Source: Candidatus Palauibacter poriticola
GTDB taxonomy: Bacteria; Gemmatimonadota; Gemmatimonadetes; Palauibacterales; Palauibacteraceae
Length of the DNA: 64,000 bases
NCBI GenBank assembly: GCA_012270965.1
Contig: JAAXHJ010000044.1
Location: 18,311 to 82,310 of the forward strand
Reading direction: 5' to 3'
Numbering within the stretch: position 1 is the stretch's first letter; each line of letters opens with the position of its first letter. A program made the translations under genes and the position numbers. Below, piece by piece: positions 22,766-39,584 of this stretch. The notes under the pieces were generated by a model. That model saw only the letters and a list, made by a program, of their open reading frames with translations. It was not told where the DNA came from and did no database searches.

Positions 22766-22810
22766 TGGGCTTCCGTGAGCCGATGAGCTTCTGTGAGCTG
22801 ATGGGCTTCG
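22757..22810 (+). repeat. Three tandem copies of an 18-nt unit (GTGAGCTGATGGGCTTCC and variants) that contain the tig stop codon.
   Basis: Read directly. The units also encode an in-frame mini-[24 protein letters not shown] (22765..22830), that ends 1 nt before the clpP start. Confidence 0.8.
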
Positions 22811-27149: not shown

Positions 27150-27186
27150 CAGACGCAGCCGCCCGGCATCAGACGCAGCCGCCCGC
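27147..27186. repeat. Perfect 20-bp tandem duplication (catcagacgcagccgcccgg, twice) spanning the mogA stop and the regulator start.
   Basis: Read directly. On the minus strand it gives TGATG twice, with a 6-codon mini-ORF (MPGGCV) between the two genes. Confidence 0.85.
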
Positions 27187-28760
27187 AGACGCGTGGCCGG
27201 TATCGCCGCGCAGCAGATCGACGGCATGGTCGACCACGGACTCGAGAGCGGCGAGCCCGTCGGAGACGCCGCCCGGACTCCCGGGCAGGTTGATGACGAG
27301 CGTCTCGCCGCGGACTCCCGCCAGCCCGCGGCTGAGCGCCGCGTACGGCGTGGACTCGGCGCCGGTGCGGCGCAGCATCTCGGCGATCCCCGGCGCGCGG
27401 CGCTCGAGGATGGTGCGCGTCGCCTCGGGCGTCACGTCGCGCGCCGCAAGCCCGGTTCCGCCCGTCGTGAGAACGACGTCCACCCCCTGCACGTCGCACC
27501 AGTGCAGGAGGCGGGCGGCGATCTCGGCGCTCTCGTCAGGGATGACATCGGCGCCGGCCAGCGAGTAGGCGCGCCCCCGAATCCACTTCTTGATGAGATC
27601 CCCGGAACCGTCTTCCCGCTCTCCGGCGGACACGCGGTCGGAGATGGTCACGACGGCGATCCGCGGGGCGATGCGGTGCAGCGAGCCGCGCGGATAGAAG
27701 GGCGGACGCACGACCTCGGCCGCGATCGCCTTCCCCCGGATCATGATCTCGACCGCGGCGCCGAACCCGGCGGCGACGGGCAGGTACGCGGTCGCGATCC
27801 CGTGCCCCATGGAGGGGCTCACGGTGCCGCTGCGCACCTCGCCAACGGCCTCCCCCTCGAAGCGGACCTCGTAACCCGGCCGCGGGAAGCCCCGATCGAG
27901 CAGTCTCAGGAAGCGCAGCCTGCGGGTGAGGCCGGCGGCGCGCTGCGCGGCGAGGGCCTCCGAGCCCACAAAGTCGCCCTTGCCGTGCTTCACGAGCCAC
28001 CCGAGTCCGGCCTCGAGCGCAGTCGTCTCATCGTCCACGTCGTTTCCGTAGAGCGCGTAGCCCATCTCGAGCCTAAGCGAGTCGCGGGCCCCCAGACCCG
28101 CGGGGACGGCGCCGGCCTCGACGAGCACCCGCCACGCCGGCGCCGCATACGCCTTCGGCATGTAGAGTTCGAACCCGATCTCCCCCGTGTAACCGGTCCG
28201 GCTGATCACGCACGGCGCGCCCGCGACCTCCCCGCGCACGAAGTGGTAGTAGTCGATCTCCGCCAGCGGCTGGTCGGTCAGCGGCGCGAGCGTCCTCTCC
28301 GCCAACGGACCCTGGAGGGCGAGGAGGGCGATCTCGTCGCTCTCGTCCGTCATTTCCACGTCGAAGCCCCGCGCGAGCCTGCCGAGGTGCGCCCAGTCCT
28401 TGGCCATGTTGGCCGCGTTCACGACGAGCCGGTAATCCGCCTCGCCCATGCAGTAGACGATGAGGTCGTCGATGACGCCGCCGGTCTCGTGGCACATCGC
28501 GCTGTACTGGGCGTCCCCATCCCGCAGGCGAGAGGGGTCGTTCGTCGTCGCGTAGGCCACGAACGCCTGCGCGTCCTCACCGCGGACGCGGAACTCTCCC
28601 ATGTGGGAGACGTCGAACAGGCCCGCCTTCTCGCGCACGGCACGGTGTTCGGCCCTGATGCCGGTCGGATACTGAACGGGCATCGCGTAGCCGGCGAAGG
28701 GAACGATCTTGCCGCCCAACCGGACGTGTTCCTCGAATAGCGGGGTCGCTTTCAGGTCTT

Positions 28761-28764
<4 letters not shown>
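27169..28764 (-). CDS. gcvT: Glycine-cleavage T protein (aminomethyltransferase) joined in-frame, with no stop, to a MogA/MoaB molybdopterin adenylyltransferase domain.
   Basis: GTG start gives [32 protein letters not shown]. GcvT runs to ...[11 protein letters not shown], then [22 protein letters not shown]...TTGGTG...INLPGSPGG, which is MogA-like. There is no stop between them in this sequence. Confidence 0.7.
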
Positions 28765-31192: not shown

Positions 31193-31305
31193 GGATCGTC
31201 TCGGGCCGTCATGGCTCGCCTCCGGCCGGTCACGGCTCGTCTCGGGTCGGTCTCGACTTGTCTCCGGTCGGTCATGGGCTCGTCTCGGGTCGTCATGGCC
31301 CGCTC
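31186..31305. repeat. About 5.5 tandem copies of a 20-21-nt unit (CGTCATGGCTCGTCTCGGGC-like) filling the hslV-hslU spacer.
   Basis: Read directly. Several units contain ATGAC. The array overlaps the hslU start and the hslV stop. Confidence 0.75.
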
Positions 31306-31853
31306 CCGTTGCCGTCGGCGCCGTCGGCGAGTTCGAGCACCGTGATCTCCCGGTTCGTGTACACGCAGATCTCCGCCGCGATCTCGAGCGCCTGCCGGGC
31401 CACTTCGGCGGCCGGCAGATCCGTTCGGCGGGCGAGGGCCCGCGCGGCGGCGAGCGCGTGCGGCCCGCCGGAACCGAGCGCGAGAATGCCATCGTCCGGT
31501 TCGATGACCTCTCCAGTACCGGCGATGAGCAGGCTCGTCTCCCGGTCGGCGACGGCGAGCAGCGCCTCGAGCCGCCGCAGATAGCGGTCGCTCCGCCACT
31601 CCTTCGCGAGTTCGACCGCGGCGCGGGTGAGGTGGCGAGGGTAGCGTTCGAGTTGCGCCTCGAACTTCTCGAACAGGGTGAGGGCGTCGGCGACGCCGCC
31701 GGCGAAGCCCGCCAGAATCCGGCCATCGCGCATCGTGCGCAGCTTGCTCGCCTTCGCCTTGACGACGGTCTCTCCCATCGTCACCTGGCCGTCGCCCGCC
31801 ATCGCGACTTCCCCTCCGACGCGAACGCAAAGGATCGTCGTGGCTCGAATCAT
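31293..31853 (-). CDS. hslV: ATP-dependent protease subunit HslV.
   Basis: [25 protein letters not shown], with N-terminal Thr-protease motifs. The track ORF extension to 32621 is spurious. Confidence 0.9.
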
Positions 31854-31858
31854 GCTCT

Positions 31859-32803
31859 TCACTCTCCGCCGCGTGGGTGCGCCCGGGAGTGTACGCGCTT
31901 GAGCCGGTCCACGGATGTGTGCGTATAGATCCGGGTCGTGCTCAGACTCGCGTGTCCCAGCATCTCCTTCACCGAGACGAGGTCCGCCCCCCGGTCGAGA
32001 AGGTGGGTCGCGAAGGAGTGGCGTAGCGAATGCGTGGTCAGGGGGTCGCCCTCCGCAACCCCTTCGAGTTGGGCCGTCACGTCGCGCTGGATCTGCCGTC
32101 GCGAGAGGCGGGTGCCGCGAATGGAGAGGAAGGCGGCGCGGGAGGCGCTCTCCCCCCGTTTCCCAAAATAGGCGCCGAGCGCTTCCGAGGCGGGCCGGCC
32201 GAGAGGGACGACACGCTCCTTCCCACCCTTGCCGAGCGCGCGAACCTGCCCCGTGTGGCGGTCCACGGCGGTCACGTCGAGGCCCTGCACCTCCGCCAGC
32301 CGCAATCCGCACGAGTACAGCAATTCGAGAAGGGCCCAGCGCCGGAGCGCCACCGCGGATCCCTCGTGCCGCGCCGCCTCGCCGGCGGAGTCGAGCAGTT
32401 TGCGGGCGTCCTCTTCGCTCAGAAACGAGGGCAGCGTCCGGTCGCCGCGGGGGGTGCGGACGAGCCGGGCCGGGCTCGCCTCCACCCGGTCCGTGCGCTG
32501 AAGAAAGGCGAAGAACGCGCGTACGGCGGCGAGCTTGCGGGCGATCGAGGAACGCTTCAGCCCGCGCAACTCCAGGTCTCCCATGAAAGAACGGATCGAG
32601 ACGCGATGGACGTCCGCCCAAGTCCAGTCGCGCGTTCCCTCATACGCGCTCACGAAGGCCTCGAACTGATCGAGGTCGCGGCGGTACGCGGACACGGTGT
32701 TGGGGGACAGCCGGCGCTCGGCGCGGGCGTAGCGAAGAAAGTCGTCGACCCATTCGCGCCGGGCTCGCCCTCGCGCACCGGCGGGCGCGGACGTCCGGGT
32801 CAT
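31859..32803 (-). CDS. xerC: Tyrosine recombinase XerC/XerD family (xerC-hslVU synteny).
   Basis: [38 protein letters not shown]. The ATG overlaps the topA stop (ATGA). Confidence 0.8.
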
Positions 32804-35388
32804 TTCCTTGACGACGTCTTGCGGGGCCCGCCGCGCCGCCCCCCCGACTTCTTGCGGGAGGCGCCGGGCCGCCTCCCCGACTTCTTGGCCGCGTCGCGCT
32901 CCTTCCGCTTTCTCAGCAGCTCCAGCGCCACGTCCAGCGTGACTTCATCTGGCTCCGTCCCCTTGGGCAGCGAAGCGTTCGTCCCGCCGTGTTTCACATA
33001 GGGACCGTAGCGACCATCGAAGATCGCGATCGACGCGCCGTCATCCGGGTGCGCACCGACCTCGCGCAACGGTGTGGCGCTCGCCCGGCGACCCCTGGGC
33101 TTGGGCTCGGCGAGCAGCTCCATGGCGCGCTCGAAGGTGATGTCGAGCGGGTCATCGGTCTTCGTCAGCGAGCGGTAGTCCGACTGGTGGACGACGTACG
33201 GTCCGTAGCGTCCGATTCCCACCTTCACCGGGTCGCCGCTCTCCGGGTGGGCGCCGAGCGGGGCGGGCATGGCGAGCAGCTTGAGCGCCGTCGCAAGCGA
33301 CACCTCCTCCGGCCGCAGGCCCTTCGGGATCGAGGCGCGCTTCGGCTTCCTCCCGTCCGCCCTCTCGCCTCGCTGTACGTAGGGGCCGTAACGCCCCTCC
33401 ATGAGGTAGATGGTCTCTCCGGAATCGGGATCCTTCCCTAGACGATCCGGACCGTCCGCCCACTTCCGGAGGTGATCGATCGCCTGCTCCTCGCTAAGGT
33501 CGGCCGGGGCCACGTTCTCGGGGACGGGCGCCCGGAGCCGGTCGCCGTCGCTCTCTAGTTCGAGGAAGGGCCCGTACTTGCCGATCCGCACGCGGGGGGT
33601 GAGATCCTCGAGCCGCACGGTCGAGGCCTCGCGCGGGTCGATGGCCGCTTCGCGCTCGACGAGTCGCGCTTCGAGGCCGTCTCTCCCACCGTAGAACTCC
33701 CCGAGGTAGGCGCGCCAGTCCACATTGCCGCGGGCGATTTCGTCCAGCGCCTCCTCCATCTGGGAGGTGAAGCCGGTGTCGACGAGGCTGGGGAAGTGCT
33801 CCTCCAAGAGACGGGTCACCGCGAAGCCGATGAAGGTGGGGACGAGTTGCTTGTTCTGCCGTACGGCGTACCCTCGATCGACGACGGTCGAGATGATGGC
33901 GGCGTACGTGGAGGGACGCCCGATTCCGTCCGCCTCAAGTTCCTTCACGAGCGTCGCATCGGTGAAGCGGGAGGGCGGCTTCGTCTCGTGCCTCCGGCTC
34001 TCCAGCTTGCGGTTCTCGAGCGTTTGGCCCTCCCGCATGTCGGGAAGGACCGTTTCCTGGTTTTCCAGCGCGACGTCCGGGTCGTCGGAGCCTTCAACGT
34101 AGGCGCGGAAGAAGCCGGGGAACTCGATCACCTTCCCGGCGGCGCGGAAGCGCGCCTCCTCCGCATCCACCTGCACGTTCAGGTGCCGCAGCCGGGCATC
34201 CGCCATCTGCGTCGCGACCGCGCGTCTCCAGATCAGTTCGTAGAGCGCCTTCTGCCGGCCGGTGAGTCCGAGTTCGCCGGCCGTCCGCATGTCGGTGCCG
34301 GCCGGGCGAATCGCCTCGTGGGCCTCCTGCGCGGAGCCGGACTTCGTCTTGTAACGCCGCGGGGCCGGGCTCAGGTATTCCTTCCCATACCGGGCGGCCA
34401 CGCGGCTTCGAATCGCGGTGATCGCGGCTTCGGACATTGTGACGGAATCGGTCCTCATGTAGGTGATGCGGCCGGCCTCGTAGAGCGCCTGAGCGATCCG
34501 CATCGTCTCACGGGCCCCGAGATTCAGCTTGCGGTTGGCCTCCTGCTGCAGGGTCGCCGTCGTGAACGGCGGGTACGGGCTCCGCTTCGACCGCTTCTCC
34601 CGCAGGCTGACGACCGTGAAGGTCGCGTCGGCCAGGCGCGCGCGGAGGGCCTCGGCGCGTCCTTGGTCGAGCAGTACCACCTTGCGCCCGGACTTGAGGG
34701 CACCGGTGCGCTCATCGAAGTCCCGGCCCGTCGCGATCGCCACCCCGTCGAGTGCGGCCAGATCGGCCGTAAAGGGGGCCCCGTCGGCGAGGAGGTGCGC
34801 GCGCAGACGCCACCAGGTGCCGCTCCGGAAGGCGCGCCGCTCCCGTTCGCGCTCCACGAGCAGGCGGACGGCGACCGACTGCACGCGGCCGGCGGAGAGT
34901 CCGCGCTTGATCTTCTTCCACAGGAGCGGCGAGACCCCGTACCCGACAAGACGGTCCAGAATCCTGCGCGCCTGCTGGGCCTCGACGCGGGGGAGGTCGA
35001 TTTCTCCCGGCCGCTCGAGCGCGGCGAGCACGGCACTCTTCGTGATCTCGTTGAACGTGATGCGGCGGCACCGCTCCCGAAGCGACCGTTTACGCGCGGT
35101 CAGGGCCTCCACGATGTGGTAGGCGATGGCCTCGCCCTCCCGGTCGGGGTCCGTGGCGAGAAGAATGGAATCCGCCTTCGCCGCCGCCGCGCGCAGCTTC
35201 CGGAGGACGGGTTCCTTCCCCTCGATCGTGACGTACTCCGGCTCGAAACCCCCCTCGACGTCGACGCCGAAGCCCTTCTTGGGGAGGTCCCGGACGTGCC
35301 CGACGGATGCCTGCACGCTGAAGCCGACCCCCAGATACGACTCGAGGGTGCGGGCCTTCGCGGGCGATTCCACGATGACGAGATTCAC
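32800..35388 (-). CDS. topA: DNA topoisomerase I. It has no Zn-ribbons, a C-terminal domain with GRYGPY repeats, and a basic tail.
   Basis: Internal GTG gives MNLVIVESPAKARTLESYLG, a TOPRIM domain, the active-site Tyr region and four RYGPYV repeats. The ORF is continuous with aroK upstream. Confidence 0.85.
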   Translation of the reverse strand: MNLVIVESPAKARTLESYLGVGFSVQASVGHVRDLPKKGFGVDVEGGFEPEYVTIEGKEPVLRKLRAAAAKADSILLATDPDREGEAIAYHIVEALTARKRSLRERCRRITFNEITKSAVLAALERPGEIDLPRVEAQQARRILDRLVGYGVSPLLWKKIKRGLSAGRVQSVAVRLLVERERERRAFRSGTWWRLRAHLLADGAPFTADLAALDGVAIATGRDFDERTGALKSGRKVVLLDQGRAEALRARLADATFTVVSLREKRSKRSPYPPFTTATLQQEANRKLNLGARETMRIAQALYEAGRITYMRTDSVTMSEAAITAIRSRVAARYGKEYLSPAPRRYKTKSGSAQEAHEAIRPAGTDMRTAGELGLTGRQKALYELIWRRAVATQMADARLRHLNVQVDAEEARFRAAGKVIEFPGFFRAYVEGSDDPDVALENQETVLPDMREGQTLENRKLESRRHETKPPSRFTDATLVKELEADGIGRPSTYAAIISTVVDRGYAVRQNKQLVPTFIGFAVTRLLEEHFPSLVDTGFTSQMEEALDEIARGNVDWRAYLGEFYGGRDGLEARLVEREAAIDPREASTVRLEDLTPRVRIGKYGPFLELESDGDRLRAPVPENVAPADLSEEQAIDHLRKWADGPDRLGKDPDSGETIYLMEGRYGPYVQRGERADGRKPKRASIPKGLRPEEVSLATALKLLAMPAPLGAHPESGDPVKVGIGRYGPYVVHQSDYRSLTKTDDPLDITFERAMELLAEPKPRGRRASATPLREVGAHPDDGASIAIFDGRYGPYVKHGGTNASLPKGTEPDEVTLDVALELLRKRKERDAAKKSGRRPGASRKKSGGRRGGPRKTSSRK

Positions 35389-35982
35389 GGGCGGTCTCTC
35401 AACTCTCCTGTTGTCCTTCCGTTCGTCCTGCCGCTGGTCCTTCTGCGCCGGCGGGCGGGCGGCGAAACGCCGCAGACCTCTCAGCGCTACCTCCACGACA
35501 TCTTCCGGTTCCCGTCCGTCCGTTTCCAGCACCACTTCGGCCTCCCCGTAGGCGGCCTCCCGCGCCTTGAGCAGCGAGGCGAGCGCGGCCGCAGGGTCGG
35601 GTCCGGCCAGCAGGGGCCGGGCCTCGGCATCCTCCCGGGAAAGGCGATGGATCGCGGTCTCGGGGCGCACGCGCAACCAGACGCGCACTCGGCCGCCGGA
35701 TGCGCGGTCGATGTCCCGGCGCGCCATCCACCCGCCCCCGGTTGCGACGACGACATCCGTGGCCCGTGCCGCCCGGGACGCGGCCGTGGCCTCGAGCCGC
35801 CGGAACTCGGCTTCCCCGCCGACGCCGAAGAGGCGCGGGATCGTCTCCCCCGCCAGCTCCTCTACCTCGCGGTCGAGGTCCACATAGCGATACCCCAGCC
35901 GCCGCGCGAGGAGGGGACCGATCGTACTCTTTCCCGCCCCGGAGAGGCCGACGAGCCAGATCTTCCGCGGCAGGCTCGACAC
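35389..35982 (-). CDS. aroK: Shikimate kinase. No stop codon separates it from topA in this sequence.
   Basis: IWLVGLSGAGKSTIG...YVDLDREVEELAGETIPRLF. The linker ...RRFAARPPAQKDQRQDERKDNRRVERP runs straight into topA. Confidence 0.65.
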
Positions 35983-35983
35983 G

Positions 35984-37171
35984 TCACGTCCCGATACGGG
36001 CGAGATAGCCCTCCACGTTGGACCGCATCTCCGCGAGGCTGTCGCCGCCGAACTTCTCGATCCACGCGTCCGCCAGCACGAGCGCCATCATCGCCTCTCC
36101 GACAACGCCTGCCGCGGGAACCGCGCACACATCGCTGCGCTCCCGGATCGCCTTGGCCGCTTCGCCCGTCCGGGTGTCGACGCTGTCCAACGGGCGGCGG
36201 AGCGAGCTGAGCGGCTTCATTGCCACGCGCGCCACGATGTCGCCCCCCGTCGTCATCCCCCCTTCCAAGCCTCCCGCGTTGTTCCGCCGCCGTCTGTAGC
36301 CCCCGCTCTCGCGGCGCGCCGGATCCCGTTCGATCTCGTCGTGGACGTCGGACCCCCGCCGGCGCGCGGCCTCGAATCCCATCCCGATTTCCACACCCTT
36401 CATCGCATGGATCGACATCATCGCGCCGCCGATGCGGCCGCTCAAGCGGGTCTCCCACGTGACGTGGCTCCCGAGACCCGCGGGAACGCCACGCACGACG
36501 ACCTCGAACACGCCTCCCAGCGAATCGCCGGCGCGGCGAGCCGCATCGATCGCCACGACCATGGCGGCTCCGGCCTCCGCATCGATGCAGCGCACGGGCG
36601 AGGCGTCGGCCACGGCGAGAAGATCCTCCGGCAGCGGCACATCCGGCGGCACCTTCACCGGACCGATCAACACCACGTGACTCGCGATGCGCACGCCGAA
36701 CTCGCCCAGCAACCGCTTGGCGACGGCCCCGGCCGCGACGCGCGCGGCGGTCTCTCGCGCGCTCGCACGTTCGAGGATGTCGCGGGCGTCCTTGCGCCCG
36801 TACTTGAGCATCCCCGCGAGGTCGGCGTGTCCCGGCCGCGGCAGGTACACGCGGCGCAGGAGTTCGTCGTCATCCACCTCCGGCGCCTCGACCGCCATCG
36901 CCGCCCCCCAGTTTCTGAAGTCGCGGTTGGGGATGCGGATCGCGACCGGAGACCCCAGCGTCTCCCCCAGGCGCACACCGCCGAAGATCTCGCCCACATC
37001 CCTCTCGATCCTCATGCGGCCCCCGCGGCCGTGCCCGCCCTGCCGGCGCGCCAGTTCCCGCGCCACGTCGTCAGTTTCGAGCGCCAATCCGGCGGGGATC
37101 CCCTCCAGCACGGCGACCACGGCGGGGCCGTGTGTCTCGCCCGCCGTGGTCAACCTCAGACACCTCAACAT
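35984..37171 (-). CDS. aroC: Chorismate synthase.
   Basis: LTTAGETHGPAV, GGRMRIERD and RSDVCAVPAAGVVGE regions. Confidence 0.9.
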   Translation of the reverse strand: MLRCLRLTTAGETHGPAVVAVLEGIPAGLALETDDVARELARRQGGHGRGGRMRIERDVGEIFGGVRLGETLGSPVAIRIPNRDFRNWGAAMAVEAPEVDDDELLRRVYLPRPGHADLAGMLKYGRKDARDILERASARETAARVAAGAVAKRLLGEFGVRIASHVVLIGPVKVPPDVPLPEDLLAVADASPVRCIDAEAGAAMVVAIDAARRAGDSLGGVFEVVVRGVPAGLGSHVTWETRLSGRIGGAMMSIHAMKGVEIGMGFEAARRRGSDVHDEIERDPARRESGGYRRRRNNAGGLEGGMTTGGDIVARVAMKPLSSLRRPLDSVDTRTGEAAKAIRERSDVCAVPAAGVVGEAMMALVLADAWIEKFGGDSLAEMRSNVEGYLARIGT

Positions 37172-37772
37172 TCCGTCGGCATCGCGTACATTCCCTCCTC
37201 ATCAACCGGCCGTCCCAACGGCGGGAAAAGGATGCGCCGAGGGCGGGAGCCGCAACCGGCGGCTGAAACGACCAACTCGGTGGAGCCTCGCCGACGCCGT
37301 CTTCCATCATCCGCCACGAAGAAGCGGCTCATGCCGTACGGGCTGTGAGACGCCACCGTCTACCAGGGTGTGAGGTCACATGGGACCAACAGATGTGGGC
37401 ACCGCCGCAACGAGAATGGCGGGCTCCGGGAAAACCCTGTAGAGAAAGATCTCTTTCCCGTAGCTAGAGTCGTGGGCCCAGCTGCTTTCGTCCACCCGGG
37501 CCCGACCGCCTCATGCGTCAAGCGGCCCTCCGTTGTGAAGAAACGTACGCGCTCTTCCGTGAAGCCCACTTGTGCAAACCCGCGTCCGTCGGCGGCAGGG
37601 AACAGTTGCGCCGGCTATCCGATGCCGTCTCTGATCATAGGCTCAAGCCTCCCCGGTGCCGCCGACGGAGTGGACCCAGAGTAACCCTCGGGCCTCAAGT
37701 GGCCCATCCCCTTGTTCGAACGGCGGAAGAAGGATGTGCCGAAGGCGGGGGCCGCAACCTGCCGTCCCTCCA

Positions 37773-39584
37773 TCATCCGCCGGGCCGGGGTTGGATGATG
37801 TGCGGCGTGACGAGGATGATGAGGTCCTGCTTCACCTCGTATTCCTTCGTGCTCCGGAACAGGGCCCCGAGCAGCGGGAGGTTCATCAGGCCGGGGATGC
37901 CGCTGCGGCTCCGGCTCACCTCGCTCAGCGTCAGCCCGCCGATCACGGCGGTCTCGCCGTCATCGAGCAGCAGTGTCGTCTCGCCGATCTGCTTTTCGAA
38001 CACGAATCCCACATCCGAGAGTCCGACCTTCAGGCCGGACCGTTCGGCCATCAGTTCCAGCCGGATCTGGTTGTTGTTCGTGACGTGCGGAACGACGTCC
38101 AGAATGATCCCCGTGTCTTCGTAGTCGACGTTGACGCGCGCGGACTCGGTCTGGGCTCCCGGCTCCAGGACGCGGATCGGGGTGCGTTCGCCCACCTGGA
38201 TCCTTGCGTGCGCGTGGTCCACGACTCGGATCGAGGGTGCCGCCTGCACGTCCGACAACTGGTGGGACTCCAGCGCTTCGAGGAACGCGAAGAGGGAGAA
38301 CTCGCCGAACGCCACGGCCGTCAGGATCTGGAGGGCGGGCCCGATCGGACGATCGTTCGCGTTCGCCAGCGCCGCGACCGCCGAACCGCCCAAGCTTACG
38401 AGCGTTTCGTTCGTCCGCCTGATGAACCCCTGATCGACGGTGCCATCGCCGTCCACATCGACGAGCTGGGGTGGCGAGTTGGGATCGGGCACCGCGATGA
38501 GGTCGTTGAGGCCCTGCTCCACGAAGCCGCCGTTGCGCTCCTTGAGGTCGTACACGATCCCCAGTTGTTGTACGTCGGTCCGATCCACGAACACGATCTT
38601 CGCCTCGATCGCGACCTGTGGGAGGCGCCGGTCCAAGGCCGCGATGATCGTGTCCATCCGCGCGACGACGGACGGTGCGTCGGTCACGATGACGCTGTTG
38701 CTGCCGGAGAACGACACGACTTGGCCGCGGTTGGGCGTGGCCAGGTGTCGGAGCGTCTCGGCCACCGAATCCGCCCGCGCGTAGTTGACCCGGATCACGC
38801 GCGTTTCGCTGAGCAGTTGATCCCGCGCCTGGAGGTTCTCCAGCCAGTCCACGACGATGATTCCGCTCTCGGTCCGGTGCCAGCCGAGGTTCTGGGCCGA
38901 CAGGATCGCGTTCAGCGCCACGTCCCACGGCTGGTCGCGGATGTCGATGCCTCGAACGACGACGGACGCGACCTCGCCGTTCGGGACGACCGAGATGTCC
39001 GCGAACTCCGAGAAGCCGGCGAGGACGTCGAGCATGCTGGCGCTGTCGTACACCACCGAAATGCGCGGCTCGGTCTCCTGCGTTACGGACGGCGGCCCGG
39101 TCTGCGGCCCGGTCTCCGTGACGGGCGGCGGCCCCGTCCGCAGCTCGGTCTCCGGCGTGACGGGCGGCGGCCCGCGATCACGGCGAGCGCCCGTCGTCGA
39201 CCACGGAGCAAAGGGCGGCCCCGGGTTCTGGAAGGTCACGCGGGTCGTTCCGGAGTCCGCGGCGACGCGGTAGGCGGTTTCCCGATCAAGGTCGAATACG
39301 AGGCGCAACGTCCCGGGCTGGAGCTGAGTGGAACGCATGGCGAGGACTCCGCCGCGGCCGATCCGGTCGTAGTGGCGGCGCGCCAGACCTCGGCTCACCC
39401 CGTCAAGGTCCAAGACTAGTCGCGGAGGATTGGCGAGCATCATGTGGCGGGGCGTGGCCGGTCCGCCGACGACCAACGTGATCTCGGTGTCCGTCCCCTC
39501 GGAGGTGATCCTCACTTCCCGCAGTTCGGCTGGGGAGGCCGCCGCAAGCGCCAAGGCGAAGGCGAGAATGGCCCGGGAGATCAT
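37773..39584 (-). CDS. pilQ: Type IV pilus secretin PilQ.
   Basis: AMIN-like N-terminus. Secretin C-terminus ...GIPGLMNLPLLGALFRSTKEYEVKQDLIILVTPHII. Confidence 0.85.
   Translation of the reverse strand: MISRAILAFALALAAASPAELREVRITSEGTDTEITLVVGGPATPRHMMLANPPRLVLDLDGVSRGLARRHYDRIGRGGVLAMRSTQLQPGTLRLVFDLDRETAYRVAADSGTTRVTFQNPGPPFAPWSTTGARRDRGPPPVTPETELRTGPPPVTETGPQTGPPSVTQETEPRISVVYDSASMLDVLAGFSEFADISVVPNGEVASVVVRGIDIRDQPWDVALNAILSAQNLGWHRTESGIIVVDWLENLQARDQLLSETRVIRVNYARADSVAETLRHLATPNRGQVVSFSGSNSVIVTDAPSVVARMDTIIAALDRRLPQVAIEAKIVFVDRTDVQQLGIVYDLKERNGGFVEQGLNDLIAVPDPNSPPQLVDVDGDGTVDQGFIRRTNETLVSLGGSAVAALANANDRPIGPALQILTAVAFGEFSLFAFLEALESHQLSDVQAAPSIRVVDHAHARIQVGERTPIRVLEPGAQTESARVNVDYEDTGIILDVVPHVTNNNQIRLELMAERSGLKVGLSDVGFVFEKQIGETTLLLDDGETAVIGGLTLSEVSRSRSGIPGLMNLPLLGALFRSTKEYEVKQDLIILVTPHIIQPRPGG

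Follow-up and report, generated by a model that had tools for sequence, protein, structure and literature searches.

A continuous aroK-topA open reading frame in Candidatus Palauibacter poriticola and the displaced stop codon at its junction

The open reading frame and its two halves

The sequence considered here is a stretch of 64,000 nucleotides (nt) from Candidatus Palauibacter poriticola, a member of the Gemmatimonadota (the window; contig JAAXHJ010000044.1, G+C about 70%), in which the gene for shikimate kinase (aroK) and the gene for topoisomerase I (topA) lie next to each other and share one uninterrupted reading frame. The listing of open reading frames (ORFs) gives this frame as a single ORF at 32800..35982 of the minus strand, which begins with GTG and encodes 1060 amino acids (aa), the two halves being joined without a stop. 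A sequence-only reading of the window had described AroK as continuing in frame into TopA, and this description holds. The strings that it quoted, IWLVGLSGAGKSTIG, PPAQKDQRQDERKDNRRVERP and (V/M)NLVIVESPAKARTLE, were all located in the ORF, the last of them encoded from the GTG with which topA starts (Table 1). The junction reads ...RFAARPPAQKDQRQDERKDNRRVERPP-V(GTG)NLVIVESPAKARTLE and is stop-free; VERPPVNLVIVESPAK is an example of a peptide that spans it. Pfam finds four families in the ORF: SKI at aa 15–167 (E = 4.7e-33; 115 bits against a gathering threshold of 22.1), Toprim at aa 201–313, Topoisom_bac at aa 331–760 (E = 4.4e-118) and, downstream, four repeats of Toprim_C_rpt (E = 7.4e-68). 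Because these families all fall in one frame, it is excluded that the ORF is open by chance in high-GC DNA.

The kinase half is intact and has the make-up of a canonical shikimate kinase. The Walker A motif GLSGAGKS is found at aa 12, and a GGG motif and the C-terminal helix lie within the aroK body. Residues 7–169 of the AroK query align to residues 4–165 of the shikimate kinase of M. tuberculosis (2iyq); as this alignment ends at aa 169, the entire kinase fold precedes the break that is described below. In an alignment of 17 sequences, the window and 16 orthologues, the AroK of the window matches all invariant columns. The shikimate kinase equivalogs of NCBIfam stay below their cutoff, the best of them being NF010552 with 117.6 bits against 186. 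For this reason, the name AroK rests on Pfam, on the solved homologues and on the place of the gene right after aroC, which encodes chorismate synthase. The TGA of aroC stands 1 nt ahead of the aroK GTG, and this context marks the downstream kinase as an enzyme of the shikimate pathway.

The topoisomerase half is also intact, and its catalysis is predicted from motifs. TIGR01051 (topA_bact) matches aa 201–810 with 732.4 bits against a cutoff of 456.4. The motifs VESPAKA (aa 204–210), DPDREGE (aa 278) and RITYMRTDS, which contains the active-site tyrosine (aa 508), are all present. The sequence-only reading had assigned this TopA to the type that lacks zinc fingers and carries GRYGPY repeats and a Lys/Arg tail, and each part of this assignment was borne out. 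Motifs of the form G[KR][YF]GP[YF] occur four times (aa 801, 863, 924 and 990), and 18 of the 40 residues at the C-terminal end are Lys or Arg. Pfam gives no match to zf-C4_Topoisom; zinc ribbons are impossible, because the whole of the 1060 aa contains a single Cys. The best matches among solved structures are the mycobacterial enzymes 6pcm (E = 9e-176) and 5d5h (E = 1.4e-160). Judged by these features, the half is a canonical topoisomerase I of the mycobacterial type with a zinc-free C-terminal domain. Its C-terminal 200 aa are in frame throughout and are 86–88% identical to those of named Palauibacter species, and 79% identical to those encoded at another locus of the comparison (L001). The basic tail itself contains an in-frame insertion of 11 aa (KKSGRRPGASR-like, about 32857–32889, minus strand) relative to the 851-aa TopA of relatives; the inserted residues resemble the adjoining RKKSGGRRGGP.

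The junction in orthologous loci

The first 320 aa of the ORF were searched against 5.8 billion proteins, and 120 homologues are listed. Among the homologues listed, the close relatives of AroK (74–92% identity) are all stand-alone proteins of 183–201 aa, and the TopA matches are all without an SKI domain. The C-termini of the AroK orthologues follow the pattern ...RPPAD-EGxT-EGQQES, in which the copy number of EGxT is variable. On the side of TopA, the window protein belongs to a cluster formed at 90% identity with 64 members, at least 39 others of which are 851 aa long and start with MNLVIVESPAKA. The arrangement of the two genes was compared by a motif-based scan of loci, 32 from GTDB species representatives and three from metagenome assemblies. 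Among the Gemmatimonadota loci so scanned, 24 others were scored as separate, with a stop between the genes, and only the window was scored as fused. The adjacency of aroK and topA is ancient and widespread in the Gemmatimonadota. In 11 loci of the Palauibacter type, the aroK stop is found 16 nt before the TopA motif, that is, as a TGA 10 nt ahead of the topA GTG, and topA is one frame over from aroK. Two further Palauibacter loci (L013 and L014; at about 2059–2125) have aroK and topA in the same frame, with 21 sense codons and a lone TAG between them. If one substitution removed this TAG, the two genes would be fused there too.

An exhaustive phmmer search of 1.84 billion cluster representatives found none that holds AroK and TopA in one protein; the best match had 166 bits and was single-domain. 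A literature search for an AroK-TopA fusion turned up nothing relevant, and a scan of JGI metagenome contigs for alleles of the same species, made with the conserved junction pattern of 52 nt, gave 0 matches. Alignments that reach upstream of aa 198 were considered as partial fusions and rejected, as Pfam and the sequences themselves showed them to be TopAs that lack SKI and begin with a Lys/Ala-rich extension. Extensions of this sort were observed in many TopAs of other bacteria, where they span 30–115 aa, are Lys/Ala-rich and histone-H1/HC2-like, and stand before Toprim. On the evidence of these searches, the AroK-TopA architecture is not conserved, and the window instance is a singleton. 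The sequence-only reading had offered two possibilities, a genuine AroK-TopA fusion or an aroK that has lost its stop while topA initiates internally, and had pointed to orthologues as the check. The orthologues keep a conserved stop, in the 11 Palauibacter-type loci with their TGA as well as in the other Gemmatimonadota loci scored, and the genuine fusion is thereby refuted.

The ancestral tail of AroK is still readable in the window. It lies in the +2 frame as ...AEGPAAGRTEGQQES and is followed by a TGA that leaves 10 nt to the GTG of topA (Table 1). The ORF listing also contains an ORF at 35399..35731 that ends in ...TEGQQES, while the orthologues end in ...EGxTEGQQES followed by the stop. 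Upstream of about 35446, the kinase reads in the frame that is now common to topA. When the region was compared by blastn with five relatives (about 90–91% DNA identity), the sole gap in 1082 nt was one of 8 positions in the aroK tail. In a MAFFT alignment, the tail zone spans 26 nt in the window, where it is bounded by GCCGGCG and GAAGGACAACAG, against 18, 30 or 42 nt in other species, which differ from one another by whole units of 12 nt. No homopolymer is present at the site. As judged from these alignments, the window carries an insertion or deletion (indel) that is not divisible by three in the hypervariable repeat tail, with a net gain of 8 nt relative to the nearest relatives. Only a zone (Table 1) was assigned to this indel, as even the closest relatives that were found do not exceed about 91% identity at the DNA level. 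The second possibility raised by the sequence-only reading, a lost aroK stop with internal initiation of topA, is close to these data. The part that did not stand is the loss itself, since the TGA is unmutated and was displaced by the indel upstream of it.

The basic linker that had been described between the two enzymes was found as sequence, but it is not an evolved linker. It is instead the acidic ancestral tail (the EGxT repeats and ...EGQQES with its stop) and the spacer of 10 nt, both read in the frame of topA. In the relatives, the topA frame upstream of the TopA motif contains about 30 open codons that read as the linker-like RRTGKDERKDNRRVERPPV and include no start codon, and the third frame closes at a TGA that overlaps the topA GTG. 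Because the topA frame is open and the third frame is closed, about half of all frameshifts that fall within roughly the last 28 aroK codons would fuse the genes. A fusion at this place is an expected kind of accident with a large mutational target.

The tail is variable in other respects as well. Across the loci aligned (L001, L003–L015, L036 and L037), the 3' tail array of aroK (35399–35450 in the window) consists of GAAGGACNNNCG units whose number varies between species, and its codons in the native frame mostly end in A despite the G+C content of 70%. This purine-rich tail also carries an AGGAG upstream of topA. The conservation of nucleotides in the tail may therefore serve the initiation of topA rather than the AroK protein. 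One close relative (L037; PANK22-1_SAMN12291211 scaffold_800, at about 2050) has a premature TGA in the AroK tail (...PPADREG(stop)TEGQQES(stop)) and encodes an AroK of 183 aa. This premature stop indicates that the tail is dispensable.

The surrounding genes stand in the order aroC-aroK-topA-xerC-hslV-hslU, are all encoded by the minus strand and leave little space between them; the ATG of xerC overlaps the stop of topA (ATGA). A consensus scan of 31500–37800 revealed no promoter-like site, and terminator-like sites in the same interval did not exceed the shuffle expectation. The xerC product has 314 aa in the window and 283 aa at L001, and that of hslV (31293–31802, minus strand) has 169 aa compared with 185–194 aa in relatives. 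These differences are probably not real and reflect the choice of start sites in high-GC DNA. The features of the region are collected in Table 1.

Table 1. Features at and around the aroK-topA junction; positions are those of the window.
Feature	Position	Strand	Evidence
aroC (chorismate synthase)	35984..37171	-	Pfam Chorismate_synt, E = 8.8e-116; gene order kept in relatives
aroK body, aa 1–179, in the frame of the orthologues, to ...RFAARPPA	35446..35982	-	Pfam SKI; alignment to 2iyq; orthologue alignment
Zone of the indel that breaks the frame	35431..35450	-	MAFFT DNA alignment; blastn; three-frame translations
Tandem repeat of period 12, GAAGGACNNNCG, EGxT in the ancestral frame	35413..35441	-	TRF: period 12, 2.4 copies
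Ancestral aroK tail EGPAAGRTEGQQES with its TGA (35401..35399)	35399..35443	-	Out of frame with the fused ORF; readable solely in the +2 frame
Linker, aa 180–198, QKDQRQDERKDNRRVERPP	35389..35445	-	Ancestral tail and 10-nt spacer (35389..35398) read in the topA frame
topA GTG start codon	35386..35388	-	DNA alignments; annotated starts of the 851-aa TopAs of relatives
topA, 862 codons and stop	32800..35388	-	Pfam; TIGR01051; motifs; identity to relatives
xerC	31859..32803	-	Pfam Phage_integrase and Phage_int_SAM_1; followed by hslV and hslU

Mutation, artefact or selected fusion

The account that is favoured on balance is that a recent and lineage-specific indel in the repeat-containing 3' tail of aroK broke the frame and so created a read-through ORF. 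Such an indel would shift the translation of aroK into the topA frame some 45–60 nt before the surviving ancestral TGA. The topA frame is open up to the GTG, which holds for all close relatives too, and ribosomes that come from aroK would no longer terminate; they would read the old tail and the spacer as QKDQRQDERKDNRRVERPP and go on into topA. The predicted product of about 117 kDa would be a complete TopA with a complete AroK fold tethered to its N-terminus, and AroK would exist solely in this form. For TopA, the situation is expected to be different. Relatives that have a separate topA share every one of the 34 nt before the topA GTG, among them the AGGAG (35408..35404 in the window). The initiation region is thus unchanged, and the internal GTG probably still gives rise to free TopA (862 aa). 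TopA plausibly tolerates the tethered N-terminal domain, since many other TopAs have long extensions at this end. What we infer is that the organism, and not the assembly alone, carries the indel, that it makes and tolerates the fusion protein, and that topA is still initiated internally. The fusion is regarded as a neutral or slightly deleterious accident and not as an adaptation.

Much depends on the indel itself, which we consider, with modest confidence, to be a real mutation. An identical product of 1060 aa is encoded on four to five public contigs of at least two size classes in NCBI and ENA, which suggests more than one assembly run, and an exact look-up mapped eight neighbouring proteins to the same four contigs. 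A stand-alone AroK with at least 93% identity was not found in the database of 5.8 billion proteins, and no other disrupted genes were seen among the neighbours compared. The competing explanation is an artefact: aroK and topA would be separate genes, the tail would be longer by an in-frame number of nucleotides (for example, 9 nt), and a spurious deletion of 1 nt or another non-triplet indel would have joined them on paper only. This explanation is less probable but far from negligible. The fusion occurs in a single genome, which was derived from a metagenome, and the break falls in a low-complexity stretch of 70% GC with 12-nt repeats, where strain heterogeneity could confuse the assembly. 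Moreover, once a single base is corrected, the tail reads plausibly as PPA-x-EGPAAGRTEGQQES and closes at the ancestral stop. Beside the recurrence of the ORF in several contigs, the lack of a homopolymer at the site speaks against an artefact, and so does the fact that the genes nearby, as well as a second low-complexity indel (33 nt in the TopA tail), are in frame. A chimeric assembly between alleles of the 12-nt repeat is unlikely, since such a join should keep the 12-nt phase and hence the frame.

Several observations weigh against the favoured account. The sole contig that was compared, the 102-kb scaffold ROBB19-1_SAMN11878273_METAG-scaffold_104, is 100% identical to the window at 22800–45982; this identity extends over 23 kb, so that its support may not be independent, and a single read set may underlie all of the four to five contigs. 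A miscall of 1 nt within a true in-frame +9 allele would explain everything. The exact mutation is ambiguous, as alignments with +8, with +12 then -4, with +9 then -1, or with +6 and +2 relative to L001 are equally good. With respect to translation, the AGGAG resembles a Shine-Dalgarno sequence but is far from the GTG (15 nt), and the topA of relatives may rely partly on a coupling of termination and reinitiation that is lost in the window. The protein that joins GcvT to MoCF (see below) was found on two contigs only; this may hint at differences in sequence or gene calling between the contigs and is not relied on here.

Two other explanations were considered. According to one, AroK-TopA would be a selected bifunctional enzyme of the Rosetta-stone type, whose tethering is useful in this lineage. 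In its favour, two intact domains would be translated together, the ancient adjacency of the two genes in the Gemmatimonadota already makes co-expression the rule, and the clade fixes other fusions such as GcvT-MoCF. However, the relatives, the 1.84 billion representatives and the literature offer no second instance, and the linker, made of the old tail and spacer read out of frame beside a stop that has been retained, points to a very recent event. We know of no biochemical link between the phosphorylation of shikimate and the relaxation of DNA, and this also counts against a selected fusion, which is very improbable. According to the other, programmed ribosomal frameshifting or transcriptional slippage would restore the AroK terminus, and the fused ORF would be only apparent. 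Recoding of this type would draw on the ancestral tail and stop, which are intact in the -1 (+2) frame. However, neither a slippery heptamer of the form X XXY YYZ nor a run of A or T is present in 35431–35470, the relatives read the tail in a single frame and need no frameshift, and nothing would select for such a device, as the tail is dispensable. Of all the explanations considered, recoding is the one that we find hardest to credit.

Returning to a frame-breaking indel in the aroK tail, the chances are about even that it is real and also fixed in the population, in which case all shikimate kinase and possibly part of the topoisomerase I would be made as AroK-TopA of about 117 kDa. If this is true, the window would hold a newborn fusion as it is before its linker has been refined, and a natural test of how well TopA tolerates a folded passenger at its N-terminus. 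A real indel would also provide a clean and small example of the way in which a compact operon can give rise to a gene fusion, with tail repeats supplying the indels, and it would mean that an essential topoisomerase and a biosynthetic kinase both survive tethering. No new functional class is opened by this; it would be a new instance of frameshift read-through between adjacent co-directional genes. The case also calls for caution, as a striking two-enzyme ORF in a metagenome-derived genome here represents a stop that is out of frame and not a new bifunctional protein. The annotation suited to the locus is a frameshifted aroK followed by a topA with its own GTG start.

Comparison with known fusions and relatives

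A true fusion in the same window serves as a control. The ORF at 27169..28764 (minus strand, 531 aa) combines GCV_T and GCV_T_C with MoCF_biosynth, the latter being MogA/MoaB/CinA-like. This GcvT-MoCF fusion is conserved: within the Palauibacter clade, at least 11 protein clusters contain it, with lengths of 529–539 aa and 57–89% identity. Because its conservation was detected, the approach recognises real fusions. GcvT-MoCF and AroK-TopA are both ORFs with two parts, yet the former is conserved in the clade and the latter is without a second instance. In other Gemmatimonadota, GcvT was observed as a stand-alone protein of 365 aa. At the beginning of the same gene, the stop of argF overlaps the start of gcvT (28761–28764, ATGA), and the cluster formed at 90% identity around the 305-aa ornithine carbamoyltransferase of the window includes GcvT-MoCF proteins of 529 aa. 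This points to public records in which gene calls have been merged, or translation reads through, across the overlap.

Other fusions of the two enzymes with different partners are known. In the AroK-AroB fusions (NF010556 and NF010627), to which the kinase part of the window gives weak matches, shikimate kinase is also joined to a second enzyme. There, the partner is 3-dehydroquinate synthase, the two enzymes act consecutively in one pathway, and the families are conserved and curated, whereas the partner in the window is unrelated to the pathway and the instance is a singleton. Reverse gyrase, which joins a helicase to TopA, and the chlamydial TopA/SWI protein (NF004966) similarly attach a module to a type IA core, and both give partial core matches in the window. 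Their partners are conserved and functionally integrated, whereas the partner of the window TopA is a metabolic kinase that is attached through an out-of-frame remnant.

The TopA of the window resembles mycobacterial topoisomerase I (6pcm of M. smegmatis and 5d5h of M. tuberculosis) in being of type IA, in its GxxGPY-containing Toprim_C_rpt, in the lack of Cys4 ribbons and in its Lys/Arg-rich C-terminus. Unlike the mycobacterial enzyme, it is the Gemmatimonadota orthologue, and on this contig 198 aroK codons precede it in the same frame. The closest comparison is with other members of Candidatus Palauibacter, in which the genes are separate (TopA WP_310779220.1 of 851 aa; shikimate kinases of 188–191 aa) and stand in the same order, aroC-aroK-topA-xerC-hslVU. 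AroK is 74–92% identical to that of these relatives, the C-terminal 200 aa of TopA are 79–88% identical, and the 34 nt before the topA GTG together with the TGA 10 nt upstream of it are common to both. What sets the window apart is the net insertion of 8 nt in the aroK tail, which puts this TGA out of frame and makes one ORF of two genes, together with the insertion of 11 aa in TopA.

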